Source: Escherichia coli
Lineage (GTDB): Bacteria > Pseudomonadota > Gammaproteobacteria > Enterobacterales > Enterobacteriaceae
NCBI RefSeq assembly: GCF_045037415.1
Contig: NZ_CP173438.1
Length of the DNA stretch: 64,000 nt
Reading direction: 5' to 3' (one strand)
Below the pieces are notes generated by a model. The model did no database searches. It was not told where the DNA came from and saw only the letters and a list, made by a program, of their open reading frames with translations. Shown here piece after piece: positions 35,187 through 43,962 of the stretch (the first letter of the stretch is position 1; every line of letters begins with the position of its first letter). The position numbers were made by a program, and so were the translations under genes.

Positions 35187-35224
35187 TTCATTCTCCTGGC
35201 TTGTCGCCAATAAAATTCACCTTG

Positions 35225-35340
35225 CGAGTTTGTTAGTATTCTAACATCTACTCCGCAACACACTTCGATGTACATCACAATTAAGGAAATCTACTTACAA
35301 GTTTGCATCACTGTAATGCGATCTGGTTCAAATAATTCAC
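35225..35340 (-). promoter_or_regulatory. deo promoter-proximal region (deoP2): DeoR operator palindrome tgttagtattctaaca at 35231-35246 overlapping a TAGAAT -10, plus two CRP-like sites (about 35263-35284 and 35309-35334)
   Basis: Palindrome matching DeoR operator consensus TGTTAGAA.TACTAACA; TGTGA-containing CRP half sites. Confidence 0.7.
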
Positions 35341-35443
35341 TTTCAAATGAATGCGTCAGTGGTGGCAAACGCATCAGGATCAAAGTGAACATCACGAAAC
35401 TTCTTACAATGGCGCATCACCTTCGGCATAAAAGGAAAAGAAG

Positions 35444-36994
35444 ATGCCCACTTCTCATGAAAATGCACTGCAACAACGTTGCCAGCAAATTGTCACCAGC
35501 CCGGTACTTAGCCCGGAGCAGAAGCGCCATTTTCTGGCACTGGAAGCAGAAAACAATCTGCCTTACCCACAGCTGCCTGCCGAAGCCCGCCGCGCGCTGG
35601 ATGAGGGGGTAATCTGCGATATGTTTGAAGGTCATGCGCCGTACAAACCGCGCTATGTCTTACCCGATTACGCTCGTTTTCTGGCGCACGGTTCCGAATG
35701 GCTGGAGCTGGAAGGCGCGAAAGACCTTGATGACGCACTCTCTCTGCTGACCATTCTTTACCACCATGTACCGTCGGTCACATCGATGCCGGTCTACCTG
35801 GGGCAACTGGATGCGTTGTTGCAACCGTATGTTAGAATTCTAACACAAGACGAGATCGATATTCGAATAAAACGTTTCTGGCGTTACCTCGACAGAACCC
35901 TGCCAGACGCCTTTATGCATGCCAATATCGGTCCGTCTGATTCGCCCATTACCCGTGCAATATTACGTGCAGACGCAGAGCTGAAGCAGGTTTCACCGAA
36001 CCTGACCTTTATCTACGATCCTGATATCACCCCTGATGACCTGCTGCTGGAAGTGGCGAAAAACGTCTGTGAATGTAGCAAACCGCACATCGCCAACGGT
36101 CCGGTGCATGATAAAATTTTCACAAAAGGGGGCTACGGGATTGTGAGCTGTTACAACTCACTGCCGCTGGCGGGTGGTGGCAGCACGCTGGTACGCCTTA
36201 ACCTGAAAGCCATTGCCGAGCGCAGCGAATCGCTGGATGACTTCTTTACGCGCACTCTACCGCACTACTGCCAACAGCAGATCGCCATCATCGATGCGCG
36301 GTGTGAATTCCTCTATCAACAATCACACTTCTTTGAGAATAGCTTCCTGGTGAAAGAAGGGTTGATTGATCCTGAACGTTTTGTGCCGATGTTTGGCATG
36401 TATGGGCTGGCGGAAGCGGTTAACTTGCTGTGTGAAAAAGAAGGGATTGCCGCACGCTACGGTAAAGAGGCCGCCGCAAATGAAGTGGGTTATCGCATTA
36501 GCGCGCAACTGGCGGAGTTTGTCGCCAATACCCCCGTGAAATATGGCTGGCAAAAACGCGCCATGTTACACGCACAGTCGGGGATCAGTTCCGATATCGG
36601 CACCACGCCGGGCGCGCGTTTGCCATATGGTGATGAGCCAGATCCGATTACCCATCTGCAAACTGTCGCCCCGCATCATGCTTATTATTATTCCGGCATC
36701 AGCGACATTCTGACGCTCGACGAAACCATCAAACGTAATCCGCAGGCGCTGGTACAGCTTTGCCTCGGTGCCTTTAAAGCCGGAATGCGTGAATTTACCG
36801 CCAATGTCAGCGGTAACGATCTGGTTCGCGTTACCGGTTATATGGTGCGTTTGTCGGATTTAGAAAAATATCGCGCCGAAGGTTCACGCACCAACACCAC
36901 CTGGCTGGGAGAAGAAGCCGCACGCAACACTCGTATTCTGGAACGCCAGCCGCGCGTGATAAGCCATGAACAGCAGATGCGCTTTAGTCAGTAA
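35444..36994 (+). CDS. yjjI: Glycyl-radical-enzyme-like protein YjjI (DUF3029), 516 aa; substrate unknown
   Basis: ORF 35444..36994; C-terminal RVTGY motif (codons at 36827-36841) resembling glycyl radical fingerprint RVSGY; followed by overlapping radical-SAM activase gene. Confidence 0.85.
35829..35844 (-). promoter_or_regulatory. Second DeoR operator palindrome (tgttagaattctaaca; deoP1-type) located inside the yjjI coding sequence, 598 bp from the proximal operator
   Basis: Perfect 16-bp palindrome TGTTAGAATTCTAACA containing TAGAAT; spacing to proximal operator matches the known ~600 bp separation of deoP1 and deoP2. Confidence 0.7.
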
Positions 36995-37829
36995 GATTAT
37001 CCCCTTCTCCTGCGTTGACGGGCCAGGCAGTCGTCTGGCTCTGTTTTTGCAGGGCTGCAATCTGCGCTGCAAAAACTGTCACAATCCGTGGACGATGGGA
37101 CGTTGCAATGACTGTGGGGAGTGCGTGCCACAGTGTCCGCATCAGGCGTTGCAGATTGTTGACGGCAAAGTGGTGTGGAACGCTGTGGTTTGCGAGCAGT
37201 GTGATACCTGCCTGAAGAGGTGTCCGCAACATGCCACGCCAATGGCGCAATCCATGAGCGTGGACGAAGTGCTTAGCCATGTCCGCAAAGCGGTGCTGTT
37301 TATTGAAGGGATAACGGTAAGCAGCGGCGAAGCCACGACCCAACTGCCGTTTGTAGTGGCGCTGTTTACTGCTATCAAAAACGATCCGCAACTGCGCCAC
37401 CTCACCTGCCTGGTGGACAGTAACGGTATGTTGAGCGAAACCGGCTGGGAAAAATTACTCCCGGTGTGCGACGGCGCAATGCTCGATCTCAAAGCGTGGG
37501 GGAGCGAATGTCATCAGCAATTAACCGGACGCGATAATCAGCAGATTAAGCGCAGCATCTGTTTGCTGGCAGAGCGCGGTAAGCTGGCGGAACTGCGTTT
37601 GCTGGTGATCCCTGGCCAGGTGGATTATTTGCAACACATCGAAGAACTGGCGGCGTTTATCAAGGGACTCGGCGATGTTCCGGTACGCCTGAACGCGTTT
37701 CATGCCCACGGCGTGTATGGCGAGGCGCAAAGCTGGGCGAGCGCCACGCCGGAAGACGTTGAGCCGTTGGCTGATGCGTTAAAGGTGCGCGGGGTGAGCC
37801 GGTTGATATTTCCGGCGCTCTATTTGTGA
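36966..37829 (+). CDS. yjjW: Radical SAM glycyl-radical-enzyme activating protein YjjW, 287 aa
   Basis: ORF 36966..37829; CX3CX2C motif (CNLRCKNC) plus two ferredoxin-like Cys clusters ([24 protein letters not shown]); overlaps yjjI by 29 nt. Confidence 0.88.
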
Positions 37830-37831
37830 CA

Positions 37832-38335
37832 TGCCGGATACGGCCTACGGTTCGGCACAGACTTGTAGGCATGATAAGACGCGACAAGCGTCGCATCAGG
37901 CATTATGCGCCGACTGCCGGATGCGGCGTGAACGCCTTATCCGGCCTACGGTTCGGCACAGACTTGTAGGCATGATAAGACGCGTCAGCGTCGCATCAGG
38001 CATTGTGCGCCAACTGCCGGATGCGGCGTGAACGCCTTATCCGGCCTACGGTTCGGCACAGACTTGTAGGCATGATAAGACGCGTCAAGCGTCGCATCAG
38101 GCATTGTGCGCCAACTGCCGGATGCGGCGTGAACGCCTTATCCGGCCTACGGTTCGGCACAAACCTGTAGGCATGATAAGACGCGTCAAGCGTCGCATCA
38201 GGCATTGTGCGCCAACTGCCGGATGCGGCGTGAACGCCTTATCCGGCCTACGGTTCGGCACAAACCTGTAGGCATGATAAGACGCGACAAGCGTCGCATC
38301 AGGCATTATGCGCCGACTGCCGGATGCTGCCTACG
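37832..38335. repeat. BIME/REP tandem array: about 5 copies of a 100-101 bp unit, each built from two inverted REP sequences
   Basis: Direct repetition of gccggatgcggcgtgaacgccttatccggcctacggttcggcaca(g/a)ac(t/c)tgtaggcatgataagacgcg(a/t)caagcgtcgcatcaggcatt(g/a)tgcgcc with period 100-101 bp between convergent yjjW and yjjV. Confidence 0.9.
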
Positions 38336-38344
38336 AAGGGTAAA

Positions 38345-39127
38345 CTACCCACTAACGCTAAACAACGCATACGTATTATTAAGCAACACTTCGGCAATCT
38401 CATCTTCTGGTTCCGGGCGCAACTCGCAAAGCACGTCAAACACCCGCACAGCCTGTTCCGGTCGGTTAGGCTGCCCCTGAAAGCCGTTGAGCGGCATATC
38501 CGGCGCGTCGGTTTCCAGCAACAACGATGCCAGCGGTAATTTTGCGATGACATCGCGGGTTTTACTGGCGCGTGGATAGGTGATAGTACCGCCTACGCCG
38601 ATTTTGTAGCCCAGCTGTACAAACCGCTCGGCCTGTTGCAGGCTGCCGGAAAAACCGTGAACCACGCCAGTGCACGGTAAATCGTGACGTTTAAGATGCA
38701 TCGCCAGTTTGTCGTGTGTACGCCGGGAATGAAGGATCACCGGCAGATCGTAGCGTTTCGCCAGTTTCAGCTGTTCGTCGAGTAACCACTGCTGCCTCTC
38801 AAATTGCGGATCGTCGCCGAAGAGATCCAGACCGATCTCCCCCACCGCCACCACCTTCGCCGGACGCCTTTCCAGCGCCTGCTGTAGCTGATCAAGAGAC
38901 ACATCGCTATGTTTTTCCAACATCCCCGGATGCAACCCCAATGCGGCATACAGCGGTTGATATTTTTCCGCTAACGCCTGCACGCGGGCAAAATTTTCCG
39001 CCTCTGTCGCCGGAACAATGATCTTGCCTACGCCCGCTTGTGCCGCGCGTTGCAGGCTGGCCTCTTCATCGCCACTAAACGGCGGGAAATCAAAATGGCA
39101 GTGGGTATCGATAAAACGGCAAATCAA
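38345..39127 (-). CDS. yjjV: TatD-family metal-dependent DNase/hydrolase YjjV, 260 aa
   Basis: ORF 38345..39127; MICRFIDTHCHFDF TatD signature. Confidence 0.9.
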   Translation of the reverse strand: MICRFIDTHCHFDFPPFSGDEEASLQRAAQAGVGKIIVPATEAENFARVQALAEKYQPLYAALGLHPGMLEKHSDVSLDQLQQALERRPAKVVAVGEIGLDLFGDDPQFERQQWLLDEQLKLAKRYDLPVILHSRRTHDKLAMHLKRHDLPCTGVVHGFSGSLQQAERFVQLGYKIGVGGTITYPRASKTRDVIAKLPLASLLLETDAPDMPLNGFQGQPNRPEQAVRVFDVLCELRPEPEDEIAEVLLNNTYALFSVSG

Positions 39128-40197
39128 GCCAGATCCTCATTGTTAAATGTCGGGTCGTTCGCCTGCGGAGCATCGCTCACTTCGGCAACCAGCGTATCGT
39201 TGGCGACTGGCGCAGGCGGAATAACGATCGATTCCGGCGTCACCACTGGCACCAGATGGCAGGTAAGCGGCGCTTTTTCAGTTAATAGCTTGCCAACCGT
39301 GGCGAGGAAATAACGACCGCATAAACGCCCAAGTTTATAGTCTTCACGCAGCGCCGGAATCCGACTGCCAAGCGCGATACTATGTAATGGCTTCGGTGGA
39401 TAAATTTCGAATATCCGCAGCTTGCCCGGTGGTTTCTCAATAAATTGCTGAATGTCACGATAGCTGGTTTCATGATGCTGCACCAGATTGACCAGCGGCT
39501 GCAGGCTACTGTCACCCAGCCAGCGTTCCATGCGTTTGAACCACTGCGGCGTGTAGTACATTTGTGACGGCACAGTGCGGATGACGACCAACGTTTTAGC
39601 GCCCTGCCTTGCCGCCTCTTTAACCGGAATCGCATCACTGATCCCGCCATCCAGGTAGTTAATGCCTTCCAGCGACACTCCGCTACGATAAAAGCCAGGT
39701 ATCGCACTGGAGGCGCGAATCACATCCAGCCAGTTTTGTTTGGTTGGTAAAAAGTAATTAGGCGCGTAGTCATCCTGACGACAGGCGCACATATAAAACG
39801 ATTTGCCGCTGTCAAACAACCGCGCGGCGGTATCCATTTGCAACGGCATCTGGCTTGCGGTGGCCTCCACCAGCCAGTCGAGATCGATAAGATTTCCTCC
39901 ACGGACAAAGCGCAATGGATCGAAAAATTCGCGTTTTGTGGTATAGCGCATGATGACTTTGCGCGCGTAACCGGGCTGATTGCAGATAAACGCCGAGAGG
40001 TTCTGCGCCCCGGCAGATGTGCCGAGATAAAGATCGAAAGGATTAAACTGCGCGCGCATAAACTCATCCAGCACGCCAGCCGTGAAAATTCCACGCTGTC
40101 CGCCGCCTTCGCACACCAGAGCTATTCGTCCAGGCTGGAACGGCCTTAGCGACAACGGCGCAATATTACCAAGCGTTACAGGTATTCGCTGCCCCAC
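39124..40197 (-). CDS. yjjU: Patatin-like phospholipase YjjU, about 357 aa, probable GTG start
   Basis: ORF 39124..40233 opens at a TTG; GTG at 40195-40197 has AGGAAGG SD 6 nt upstream; patatin motifs GGGQRGIF and GTSAG; overlaps yjjV start by 4 nt. Confidence 0.85.
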   Translation of the reverse strand: MGQRIPVTLGNIAPLSLRPFQPGRIALVCEGGGQRGIFTAGVLDEFMRAQFNPFDLYLGTSAGAQNLSAFICNQPGYARKVIMRYTTKREFFDPLRFVRGGNLIDLDWLVEATASQMPLQMDTAARLFDSGKSFYMCACRQDDYAPNYFLPTKQNWLDVIRASSAIPGFYRSGVSLEGINYLDGGISDAIPVKEAARQGAKTLVVIRTVPSQMYYTPQWFKRMERWLGDSSLQPLVNLVQHHETSYRDIQQFIEKPPGKLRIFEIYPPKPLHSIALGSRIPALREDYKLGRLCGRYFLATVGKLLTEKAPLTCHLVPVVTPESIVIPPAPVANDTLVAEVSDAPQANDPTFNNEDLA

Positions 40198-40318
40198 CTC
40201 TGCCTTCCTGTTTTTGTTGTGAAAGAATGACAAAGTAACGCAATTTATTATTCGCTAAAACCGCAAAAGCCAGTCCGCTGGACTGGCTTTGGATAAAATT
40301 TTCTTAATGATCTGAAAT

Positions 40319-43284: not shown

Positions 43285-43962
43285 TCAGTGTTTACACAGG
43301 AGCTGCTCCAGTTCGTGCAACGAAGAAACGGTCCAGGTGGGCGCGATGCCTTCTGGTTGCTCGCGATGGTGCGCATTCAGCCAGCAGGTCGCAAGCCCGG
43401 CGTTGATGCCACCGAGAATATCGGACTCGGCAGTGTCGCCAACCATCAGCACGCGTGAACGGTCAGGATTGCCCGCCTGTTCCAGCGCATAATCGAAAAT
43501 TTTCTTATTCGGTTTGGCAACGCCAACTTCTTCGGAAATCACCAGCAAATCGAAGTAATCACGCAGGCCCGTGCGTTCCAGACGCACTTGCTGCAAGGCG
43601 CTAAAGCCGTTGGTGATGATGCCGATTTTAGCGTTGCCACGAATGGCGTTAAGCAGGGAAACCGCCCCCGGCAACGGCGTACAGATTTCCGCCATCGCAT
43701 TAATAAAGGCCTCGTTGAGTTTACCCGGTTCGACGTTCAGCCGTTCGGCCCAGCTCTCAAACCGCCCGTGCTGAAGCTGTAATGAAGTGATCACGCCGTT
43801 TTGATAATCCACCCACAGTGGCTTGTTAACGGCCTGATAGTCCTGAAAATCTTCAGCGGTAAAGGTGACGCTGTAATCAAGAAACATCCGCTGCAGGCCG
43901 GTGAATGAGTCAAAGGTAAACAGCGTTTCATCGGCATCAAAGAAAATCCAGTCCCACTTCAT
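43285..43962 (-). CDS. yjjG: HAD-family pyrimidine 5'-nucleotidase YjjG, 225 aa
   Basis: ORF 43285..43962; [17 protein letters not shown] motif I. Confidence 0.93.

Follow-up and report, generated by a model that had tools for sequence, protein, structure and literature searches.

A minimal glycyl-radical-type enzyme of Escherichia coli, YjjI, its activase YjjW, and a proposed link to nucleoside breakdown

The gene pair yjjI-yjjW lies at positions 35444-37829 of a 64,000-nucleotide stretch of Escherichia coli DNA (RefSeq assembly GCF_045037415.1, contig NZ_CP173438.1), referred to here as the window. An earlier reading made from the letters alone, which we call the original prediction, had described YjjI as resembling a glycyl radical enzyme (GRE), with YjjW as its own radical S-adenosylmethionine (SAM) activase, and had noted that the reaction is not established and that the genes themselves are annotated. 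The list of open reading frames (ORFs) and the sequence agree with the coordinates, the YjjI length and the 29-nt overlap that it gave, and both ORFs are full length and intact in the strain studied. RefSeq does indeed name the two products 'YjjI family glycine radical enzyme' and 'YjjW family glycine radical enzyme activase', while the K-12 record lists YjjI as a DUF3029 protein. Of 5426 complete E. coli genomes, 5422 carry the pair, and the 2.7-kb stretch that contains it is 100% identical to several complete genomes of the species. The pair is real and belongs to a family that has already been catalogued, and its existence is not new; it is of interest for the reaction that it may catalyse and for a lead towards nucleosides that can now be tested. 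The features of the pair, in which RNR stands for ribonucleotide reductase, PFL for pyruvate formate-lyase and PFL-AE for its activating enzyme, are as follows.

35444..36994, + strand: yjjI coding sequence, 516 aa; YjjI-family glycyl radical enzyme with a full GRE/RNR-type barrel in the predicted structure
36149..36151, + strand: TGT codon of C236, predicted to carry the thiyl radical on the finger-loop tip, motif S-C-Y-N, invariant or nearly so (C236 in 170 of 170 homologues; alignments; model)
36827..36841, + strand: RVTGY, predicted glycyl-radical loop, with the GGT codon of G465 at 36836-36838 (alignment to PFL; model)
36966..36994, + strand: 29 nt shared by the 3' end of yjjI and the 5' end of yjjW (ORF list and sequence)
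36966..37829, + strand: yjjW coding sequence, 287 aa; PFL-AE-type radical-SAM activase that carries a two-cluster ferredoxin domain as an insert
37056..37079, + strand: CX3CX2C (CNLRCKNC; C31, C35, C38), radical-SAM [4Fe-4S] site (sequence)
37104..37223, + strand: two CX2CX2CX3CP motifs (C47-C57 and C76-C86), predicted 2x[4Fe-4S] ferredoxin-like insert (Fer4_9/Fer4_7)
37320..37331, + strand: SAM-binding GGE motif, which reads S-S-G-E here (G120S, codon AGC at 37323-37325; comparison with homologues)

The overlap suggests that the two genes are likely to form an operon with translational coupling. It recurs at an identical offset throughout the Enterobacteriaceae loci that were compared (L001-L060), and pairs of more distant homologues overlap by 4-11 nt or are separated by short gaps.

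Family membership is unambiguous. A profile search, one of the checks put forward in the original prediction, matches YjjI to NCBIfam TIGR04040 over residues 11-504 with 786.2 bits (cut-off 498.3; E=1e-236) and to Pfam PF11230 over model positions 1-485 of 485 (E=8.7e-220). Only 541 clusters at 50% identity, out of 1.84 billion representatives, make up this small family, which is remote from better known enzymes: the single sequence had no meaningful match among the sequences of the PDB, and the family profile alone reached PFL and NrdD, the class III RNR. With PFL, the whole-sequence E-value of the profile is 6.8e-4, and C236 falls on C419 and G465 on G734 (I-R-V-S-G734-Y), so that similarity to GREs does extend around the proposed radical glycine. 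With E. coli NrdD, hhalign gives E=1.3e-4 at a probability of 54% and places C236 on C384. Many clostridial homologues carry precomputed Pfam matches to both PFL-like and NRDD (PF13597) models in addition to PF11230.

The AlphaFold2 model of YjjI (pLDDT 91.8, pTM 0.91) contains a complete ten-stranded alpha/beta barrel of the GRE/RNR type. A Foldseek search with this model returned NrdD for all of its top 17 matches, and the structure comparison figures are highest for class III RNR NrdD (31.7, 28.7 and 28.2), followed by PflD (27.9), IslA (26.7), CutC (26.2), HPAD (26.0) and PFL (25.7), and then by class I and class II RNRs. The solved GREs superposed on the model are 637-869 aa long, which makes YjjI shorter by 120-350 residues and bears out the remark that it is much smaller than classical members of the group. 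The accompanying suggestion that RVTGY resembles the fingerprint of PFL-type enzymes holds for the loop itself, which aligns to PFL G734, but not for the protein as a whole: judged from the model, the nearest structural relative of YjjI is class III RNR rather than PFL.

Conservation was counted over 170 distinct full-length homologues. G465, R462, C236, S235 and N238 are invariant in all of them, and Y466 is kept in 168; the glycine of RVTGY, which lies near the C-terminus as had been claimed and whose loss among orthologues the original prediction had named as grounds for abandoning it, is therefore without a single substitution. In the model, G465 sits at the tip of one hairpin (strands 460-462 and 467-469) and C236 at the tip of another (strands 231-234 and 238-241). 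Invariant polar or charged residues are numerous (R70, D123, D150, H159, N186, K213, N238, R251, E305, H376, Q378, D384 and R392), and the family has invariant motifs of its own, E-G-x-A-P, P-R-Y-x-L-P-D-Y and L-H-A-Q-x-G. The cysteines of YjjI are at positions 13, 58, 209, 211, 236, 276, 287, 330 and 440, with none beyond 440 and no CX2C pairs; C58 is kept in 164 of the 170 sequences and replaced by H, D or Y in the other six.

YjjW is equally clear in its affiliation. It matches TIGR04041 with 392.6 bits (cut-off 250.2; E=1e-117), and its Pfam matches are Radical_SAM (PF04055) and several Fer4 dicluster families, with Fer4_9/Fer4_7 at residues 46-90. It scores 130 bits on the PFLE_PFLC model as against 45-58 bits on the NrdG/NrdG2 models (cut-offs 126-131), and the segments that flank its ferredoxin-like insert, which is of a kind typical of many GRE activases, align to the PflA structures 8fo0 (E=2e-18) and 3c8f (~1e-18). 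The CNLRCKNC site and the two ferredoxin-like cysteine clusters had been read correctly from the letters, as had the assignment of YjjW as an activase, and the motif CNxxCxxCHNP is kept in all 87 YjjW homologues compared. For the SAM-binding motifs the outcome is mixed, as CX3CX2C and the SGGE of the family are found on alignment but the allele of this strain has SSGE in place of the latter. A YjjW homologue adjoins YjjI in 36 of the 38 lineages described below, on the same strand every time and in either gene order. Taken together, the barrel fold, the invariant G465 and C236, the profile alignments and the adjacent activase make it very probable that YjjI is a glycyl-radical-type enzyme that has both residues of a radical relay and is served by a dedicated activase.

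Which branch of the superfamily YjjI belongs to is a separate matter. E. coli NrdD is considerably longer (712 aa) and only 13-18% identical, and its C175 and M382, the thiosulfuranyl pair that carries the reducing chemistry, have no counterparts: N174-C175 falls in a two-residue gap that follows the invariant P-R-Y71 of YjjI, and M382 is replaced by V234, a comparison that is moderately secure as it depends on the hhalign alignment with its 54% probability. The cysteine list leaves no room for the four-cysteine zinc ribbon that NrdD has at its C-terminus by the Gly loop, the Pfam scan finds NRDD PF13597 on YjjI only at E=0.69 (residues 248-360), and the NCBIfam and Pfam scans find neither an ATP-cone nor an NrdD model. 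The NrdD activase is the small NrdG, whereas that of YjjI is PFL-AE-like and has the ferredoxin insert. C58 aligns to NrdD H160, which is no catalytic residue. The identification of YjjI as a class III RNR was accordingly rejected, there being no match to C175/M382, the zinc ribbon, the ATP-cone or NRDD.

Assignment to the PFL-like enzymes fares no better. PF02901 (PFL-like) and PF01228 (Gly_radical) give no match to E. coli YjjI in Pfam even at E<=10, although faint or weak PF02901 matches are on record for distant homologues. In place of the Cys-Cys dyad of PFL, YjjI has S235-C236, with PFL C418 aligned to S235, and where GRE 1,2-eliminases as a rule have the general-base motif C-x-E, it reads C236-Y237-N238. 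The PFL-like GREs (PflB, CutC, glycerol/propanediol dehydratase, HypD, IslA and PflD/YbiW) are also ~250-350 residues longer. PFL and eliminase identities were both rejected on these grounds, that is, on the unmatched PF02901 and PF01228 and on a loop that reads S-C-Y-N rather than C-C or C-x-E. A third candidate was a role like that of GrcA (YfiD), the E. coli 'spare-part' protein, a Gly-loop module of ~127 aa with an RVxGY loop that is activated by a PFL-type activase. GrcA has neither a barrel nor a catalytic cysteine, and YjjI has both a complete barrel and an invariant Cys loop; this candidate was also rejected, and YjjI would be a self-sufficient enzyme rather than a repair module. Because YjjI fails the defining tests both for an RNR and for a PFL or eliminase, a third, minimal branch of the glycyl-radical/RNR superfamily is the description that suits it best.

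The neighbourhoods of the pair were compared across lineages, an analysis that the original prediction had proposed for Enterobacteria. The sample comprised 173 loci, of which 80 were from genomes (those closest to E. coli), 80 from metagenomes (those closest to the homologue P0141) and the rest from exact-protein look-ups; these fall into 38 lineages at 70% YjjI identity, and the neighbouring proteins were clustered without prior labels. The most recurrent neighbour after YjjW is the ATPase of a BMP-type ABC transporter (14 of 38 lineages). Near the pair there are also BMP-family substrate-binding proteins and ABC permeases (9 lineages each), ribokinase (6), DeoD (5), the nucleoside hydrolase Rih and an RbsR-like regulator (4 each), and DeoA, DeoB, DeoC and Cdd (3 each); adenosine deaminase is recurrent as well. 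Nucleosides have known binding proteins in the BMP family. Within 6 kb of the pair, 14 of the 38 lineages have specific nucleoside or ribose genes, or 15 if lineage L087 is counted. In 9 of 38 a gene of this sort directly adjoins the pair, and the frequency drops with gene rank. By a rough estimate, made without a matched control, chance would place a nucleoside gene immediately beside the pair in well under 1% of lineages. The arrangements that illustrate the association best are these.

L168: substrate-binding protein, YjjI, YjjW, ATPase, permease, permease, DeoC, Add, DeoB
L120: substrate-binding protein, YjjI, YjjW, ATPase, permease, permease, ribokinase
L142: YjjI, YjjW, Cdd, PyNP, DeoC, DeoB, DeoD
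L072 (Gilliamella), all in one direction: deoB-deoD-nucleoside permease-add-cpdB-cdd-PyNP-yjjI-yjjW
L094: Rih-ADP-ribosyl-GH-PfkB-DeoD-sulfatase-YjjI-YjjW-MFS-Bmp-ABC

Several other neighbours stand out. Five neighbour clusters were left unnamed by NCBIfam (c47, c60, c83, c141 and c144), three of which have Pfam names: c144 is ADP_ribosyl_GH, c60 belongs to the DNA_alkylation family and c83 is a HATPase/STAS-like protein. Proteins of the ADP-ribosylglycohydrolase family, of 339 aa in one case and, with a long uncharacterised C-terminal extension, of ~680-700 aa in the other two, lie by yjjIW in L094 (1187-2206), L169 (5802-7835) and L156 (10472-12568), where PfkB kinases and nucleoside transporters are also present; this layout is similar to that of yegTUV, an uncharacterised locus of E. 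coli. The same families that make up nucleoside loci of the yegTUV or BMP-ABC type (ADP_ribosyl_GH, PfkB/ribokinase, and a Bmp lipoprotein with its ABC transporter) thus flank yjjIW in these three lineages. We know of no radical enzyme in such loci, and as their substrates, too, are largely undefined, the likeness provides a pathway context rather than a reaction. Glycosylases of the DNA-repair type (AlkD-like DNA_alkylation PF08713 and endonuclease III) adjoin the pair in several lineages (L153, 10728-11396; L147, 4158-4826; L178, 6509-7135; L173, 2597-3244; L118, 5677-6309), which may hint at damaged or modified nucleosides or may be plain synteny. A sulfatase-family gene lies directly upstream of yjjI in two unrelated lineages (L094, 3806-5341; L156, 5509-7113).

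In Enterobacteriaceae and Hafnia, E. coli included, the pair is divergent from deoCABD, and the two share a control region whose elements in the window are the following (no strand is assigned).

35187..35443: divergent control region shared by deoC and yjjI, with DeoR operator O2 and the deoP2 CRP site
35231-35246: DeoR operator O2, in the deoC/yjjI intergenic region
35265-35280: deoP2 CRP site, two bases different from K-12 (GT for AC)
35830..35845: DeoR operator TGTTAGAATTCTAACA, a perfect palindrome inside the yjjI coding sequence at the deoP1/O1 position, 599 bp from O2

The published spacing between deoP1 and deoP2, across which DeoR forms a loop, is 599 bp (PMC3334521). As the two operators here are separated by exactly this distance, deoP1/O1 lies within yjjI and the DeoR loop would enclose the yjjI promoter; read from the sequence, transcripts from deoP1 would run antisense through the 5' end of yjjI and its promoter. 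In enterotoxigenic E. coli H10407, chromatin immunoprecipitation (ChIP-seq) peaks for CRP have been reported both in the yjjI/deoC intergenic region and inside yjjI (PMC4287617), and a site for the intragenic peak can be found at 35767-35782, where the sequence is TGTACCGTCGGTCACA with one mismatch. yjjI has been listed as directly activated by FNR, with a ChIP peak (PMC3688515), and is induced anaerobically in Yersinia intermedia. A scan of the region upstream of yjjI with the FNR consensus gives a single match, at 35265-35278, which has 2 mismatches and coincides with the deoP2 CRP site, and generic sigma-70 and terminator scans are at background level. Within the 5' end of yjjW, CTGGCTCTGTTTTTGCA (37035-37051) overlaps a terminator-like hairpin from the consensus scan, and it is identical to IS57, reported as a strong intragenic sigma-54 binding site (PMC4591121).

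From the neighbourhoods and from the adjacency to deoCABD in E. coli, we propose, as a new inference, a link between YjjI and nucleosides or ribose. The balance tips somewhat towards a substrate that is either a nucleoside or a ribose or ribose phosphate derived from it, and YjjI would then be an anaerobic accessory enzyme of nucleoside catabolism, which in E. coli is under FNR control beside deoCABD. How it might act can be sketched from homology, the conserved residues and the predicted fold. The [4Fe-4S] cluster at CX3CX2C of YjjW would reductively cleave SAM, with the two auxiliary clusters relaying electrons, and the resulting 5'-deoxyadenosyl radical would take a hydrogen from G465 of YjjI to leave a stable glycyl radical. 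At each turnover the radical would move from G465 to the finger-loop tip in the middle of the barrel, where C236 would become a thiyl radical and take a hydrogen from one of the ribose carbons of the nucleoside or riboside. Since the second Cys/Met pair and the zinc ribbon of NrdD are absent, a redox-neutral 1,2-elimination on the ribose ring is favoured over a reduction; it might proceed with loss of the 2'-OH or another 2'-substituent, or with loss of the base at C1', and would resemble the first half-reaction of an RNR or a lyase of the CutC/diol-dehydratase type rather than a reductase. The assignment of elimination or lyase chemistry on ribose is itself doubtful. The fuller proposal, in which a third minimal branch of the superfamily performs RNR-like radical chemistry on the ribose of free nucleosides or ribosides, whether by dehydration or elimination at C2'/C3' or by cleavage at C1', is a possibility that we hold tentatively.

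There are several considerations that weigh against a nucleoside-related role. In the literature we found no biochemical or genetic characterisation of yjjI or yjjW, in keeping with the statement that the reaction is not established, and no report of a glycyl radical for YjjI; the iModulon and CytR literature also yielded nothing usable. Canonical nucleoside catabolism needs no radical chemistry, and for this reason the substrate may be an unusual riboside or some other cargo of the neighbouring transporters. The sampling is biased, with the genome loci being those nearest to E. coli and the metagenome seed P0141 being itself in a nucleoside cluster, and the arrangements in Enterobacterales may descend from a single ancestral event. 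The clusters of ABC ATPases and permeases are generic sugar-type components, and the BMP binding proteins have no better NCBIfam match here than a weak 'B6' model. Nucleoside genes are missing from the surroundings of the pair in about half of the lineages, among them Fusobacterium (L181, with a GntR regulator only), Aliivibrio (L075 and L065), L090, L091, L082 and L083. Nothing about function could be read from the surroundings of the pair in Aliivibrio, Xenophilus sp. AP218F, Fusobacterium and four metagenomic lineages.

Some of these points feed a rather unlikely alternative, that YjjI is a GRE whose substrate is unrelated to nucleosides (a small polar metabolite, a sugar or an amino-acid derivative) and that its neighbours reflect sampling bias, shared regulation or a few mobile operons. 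Indeed, the loci were picked by similarity to two seeds, and the pair is often alone with a private regulator, GntR in Fusobacterium and LysR in L090, or accompanied by a LacI/IdnR-like regulator and edd in Aliivibrio and by MFS and GDPD proteins in L092. However, the association recurs among proteins below 70% and down to ~36% YjjI identity, in varied orders and orientations, the pair is inserted between transporter genes, and the decay of nucleoside-gene frequency with distance is centred on the pair itself; the many invariant polar and charged residues of YjjI also fit a polyhydroxylated or anionic substrate, which is a weak inference. A place for YjjI in anaerobic nitrogen, nitrate or NO metabolism, with the nucleoside neighbours incidental, is highly improbable. 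One paper put forward a role in nitrogen metabolism on co-expression grounds only (PMC3228777). Such a role would account for the conserved bicluster of E. coli and Salmonella, from multi-species biclustering in that paper, in which yjjI is grouped with narGHJI and an FNR-like motif, for the grouping of yjjI with anaerobic respiration genes in a Gene Ontology enrichment table for E. coli on dihydroxyacetone (PMC6643234), and for its activation by FNR. Yet co-expression with nar is to be expected of any FNR-activated gene and is silent on substrate, and no nitrogen-metabolism gene recurs beside yjjIW in the 38 lineages, whereas nucleoside and ribose genes do. As this explanation depends entirely on FNR co-expression, it was rejected as the main one. 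We know of no GRE that carries out inorganic nitrogen chemistry.

Another reading makes YjjI a minimal anaerobic reductase that has diverged from the RNR type. With reducing power from formate or a thiol, it would convert a ribonucleoside, ribonucleotide or ribose phosphate to the 2'-deoxy compound, for example to feed DeoC or the salvage of deoxynucleosides. This is quite unlikely. C58, kept in nearly all homologues, could serve as a second redox cysteine, which would count against redox-neutral chemistry, but its alignment to a non-catalytic histidine of NrdD and its replacement in six sequences argue otherwise, as do the missing equivalents of C175 and M382, the missing C-terminal zinc-ribbon cysteines, the failure of ATP-cone and NRDD models to rise above noise, and an activase that is PFL-AE-like and not NrdG-like; E. 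coli moreover already has NrdDG. The remaining alternative concerns this strain and not the family, namely that the module is impaired or decaying here due to YjjW G120S. S-G-G-E is invariant in 87 of 87 YjjW homologues, from E. coli relatives down to 32% identity, and K-12 has G120; at least 3970 of the 5426 complete E. coli genomes have a Gly codon at this position, while an exact 45-mer finds the Ser allele in exactly 357, strains 81009, H105 and AR_0086 among them. A second change in YjjW relative to K-12 is Y199C. Still, we regard impairment as improbable: both ORFs are intact, the five changes of YjjI relative to K-12 are all conservative, and the allele is fixed in a successful lineage with 357 sequenced genomes. 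The GGE motif contacts SAM mostly through backbone atoms, and a serine may for this reason be tolerated.

The surroundings of the pair add some further detail. The spacer between yjjW and yjjV (37833-38390) contains five tandem units of ~100 nt, made up of palindromic elements resembling repetitive extragenic palindromes and bacterial interspersed mosaic elements (REP/BIME-like), and is ~100 bp longer here than in K-12. Beyond it lie further conserved enterobacterial neighbours, yjjV (38345-39127), for a TatD-family metal hydrolase, and yjjU (39124-40233), for a patatin-like protein. yjjG (43285-43962), annotated elsewhere as a nucleotidase, belongs to the same conserved neighbourhood, and the order yjjV/yjjU/yjjG is syntenic across about 55 species.

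GREs perform some of the hard anaerobic reactions of the gut, such as the conversion of choline to trimethylamine, the dehydration of hydroxyproline and the cleavage of sulfonates. Structures of PflD and YbiW with bound 1,5-anhydrohexitol 6-phosphates are listed as those of dehydratases, and YjjI, the product of a core E. coli gene, is thereby left, to our knowledge, as the only full-length glycyl-radical-type enzyme of this organism that has no assigned reaction. The neighbourhood result narrows what was an open-ended orphan to a short list of testable substrates. If the proposal made here is correct, a radical step would add a new reaction to the breakdown of nucleosides and ribosides, a pathway held to be fully understood, and this previously unrecognised anaerobic step would be shared by bacteria as far apart as E. 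coli and Clostridia. The use of modified or hydrolysis-resistant ribosides by gut anaerobes could find an explanation in it. Under the same proposal, YjjI could stand in evolution between ribonucleotide reductases on one side and metabolic glycyl radical lyases on the other, and, with 516 aa and no allosteric domains, it would offer a compact model of the adaptation of the RNR barrel to metabolism.

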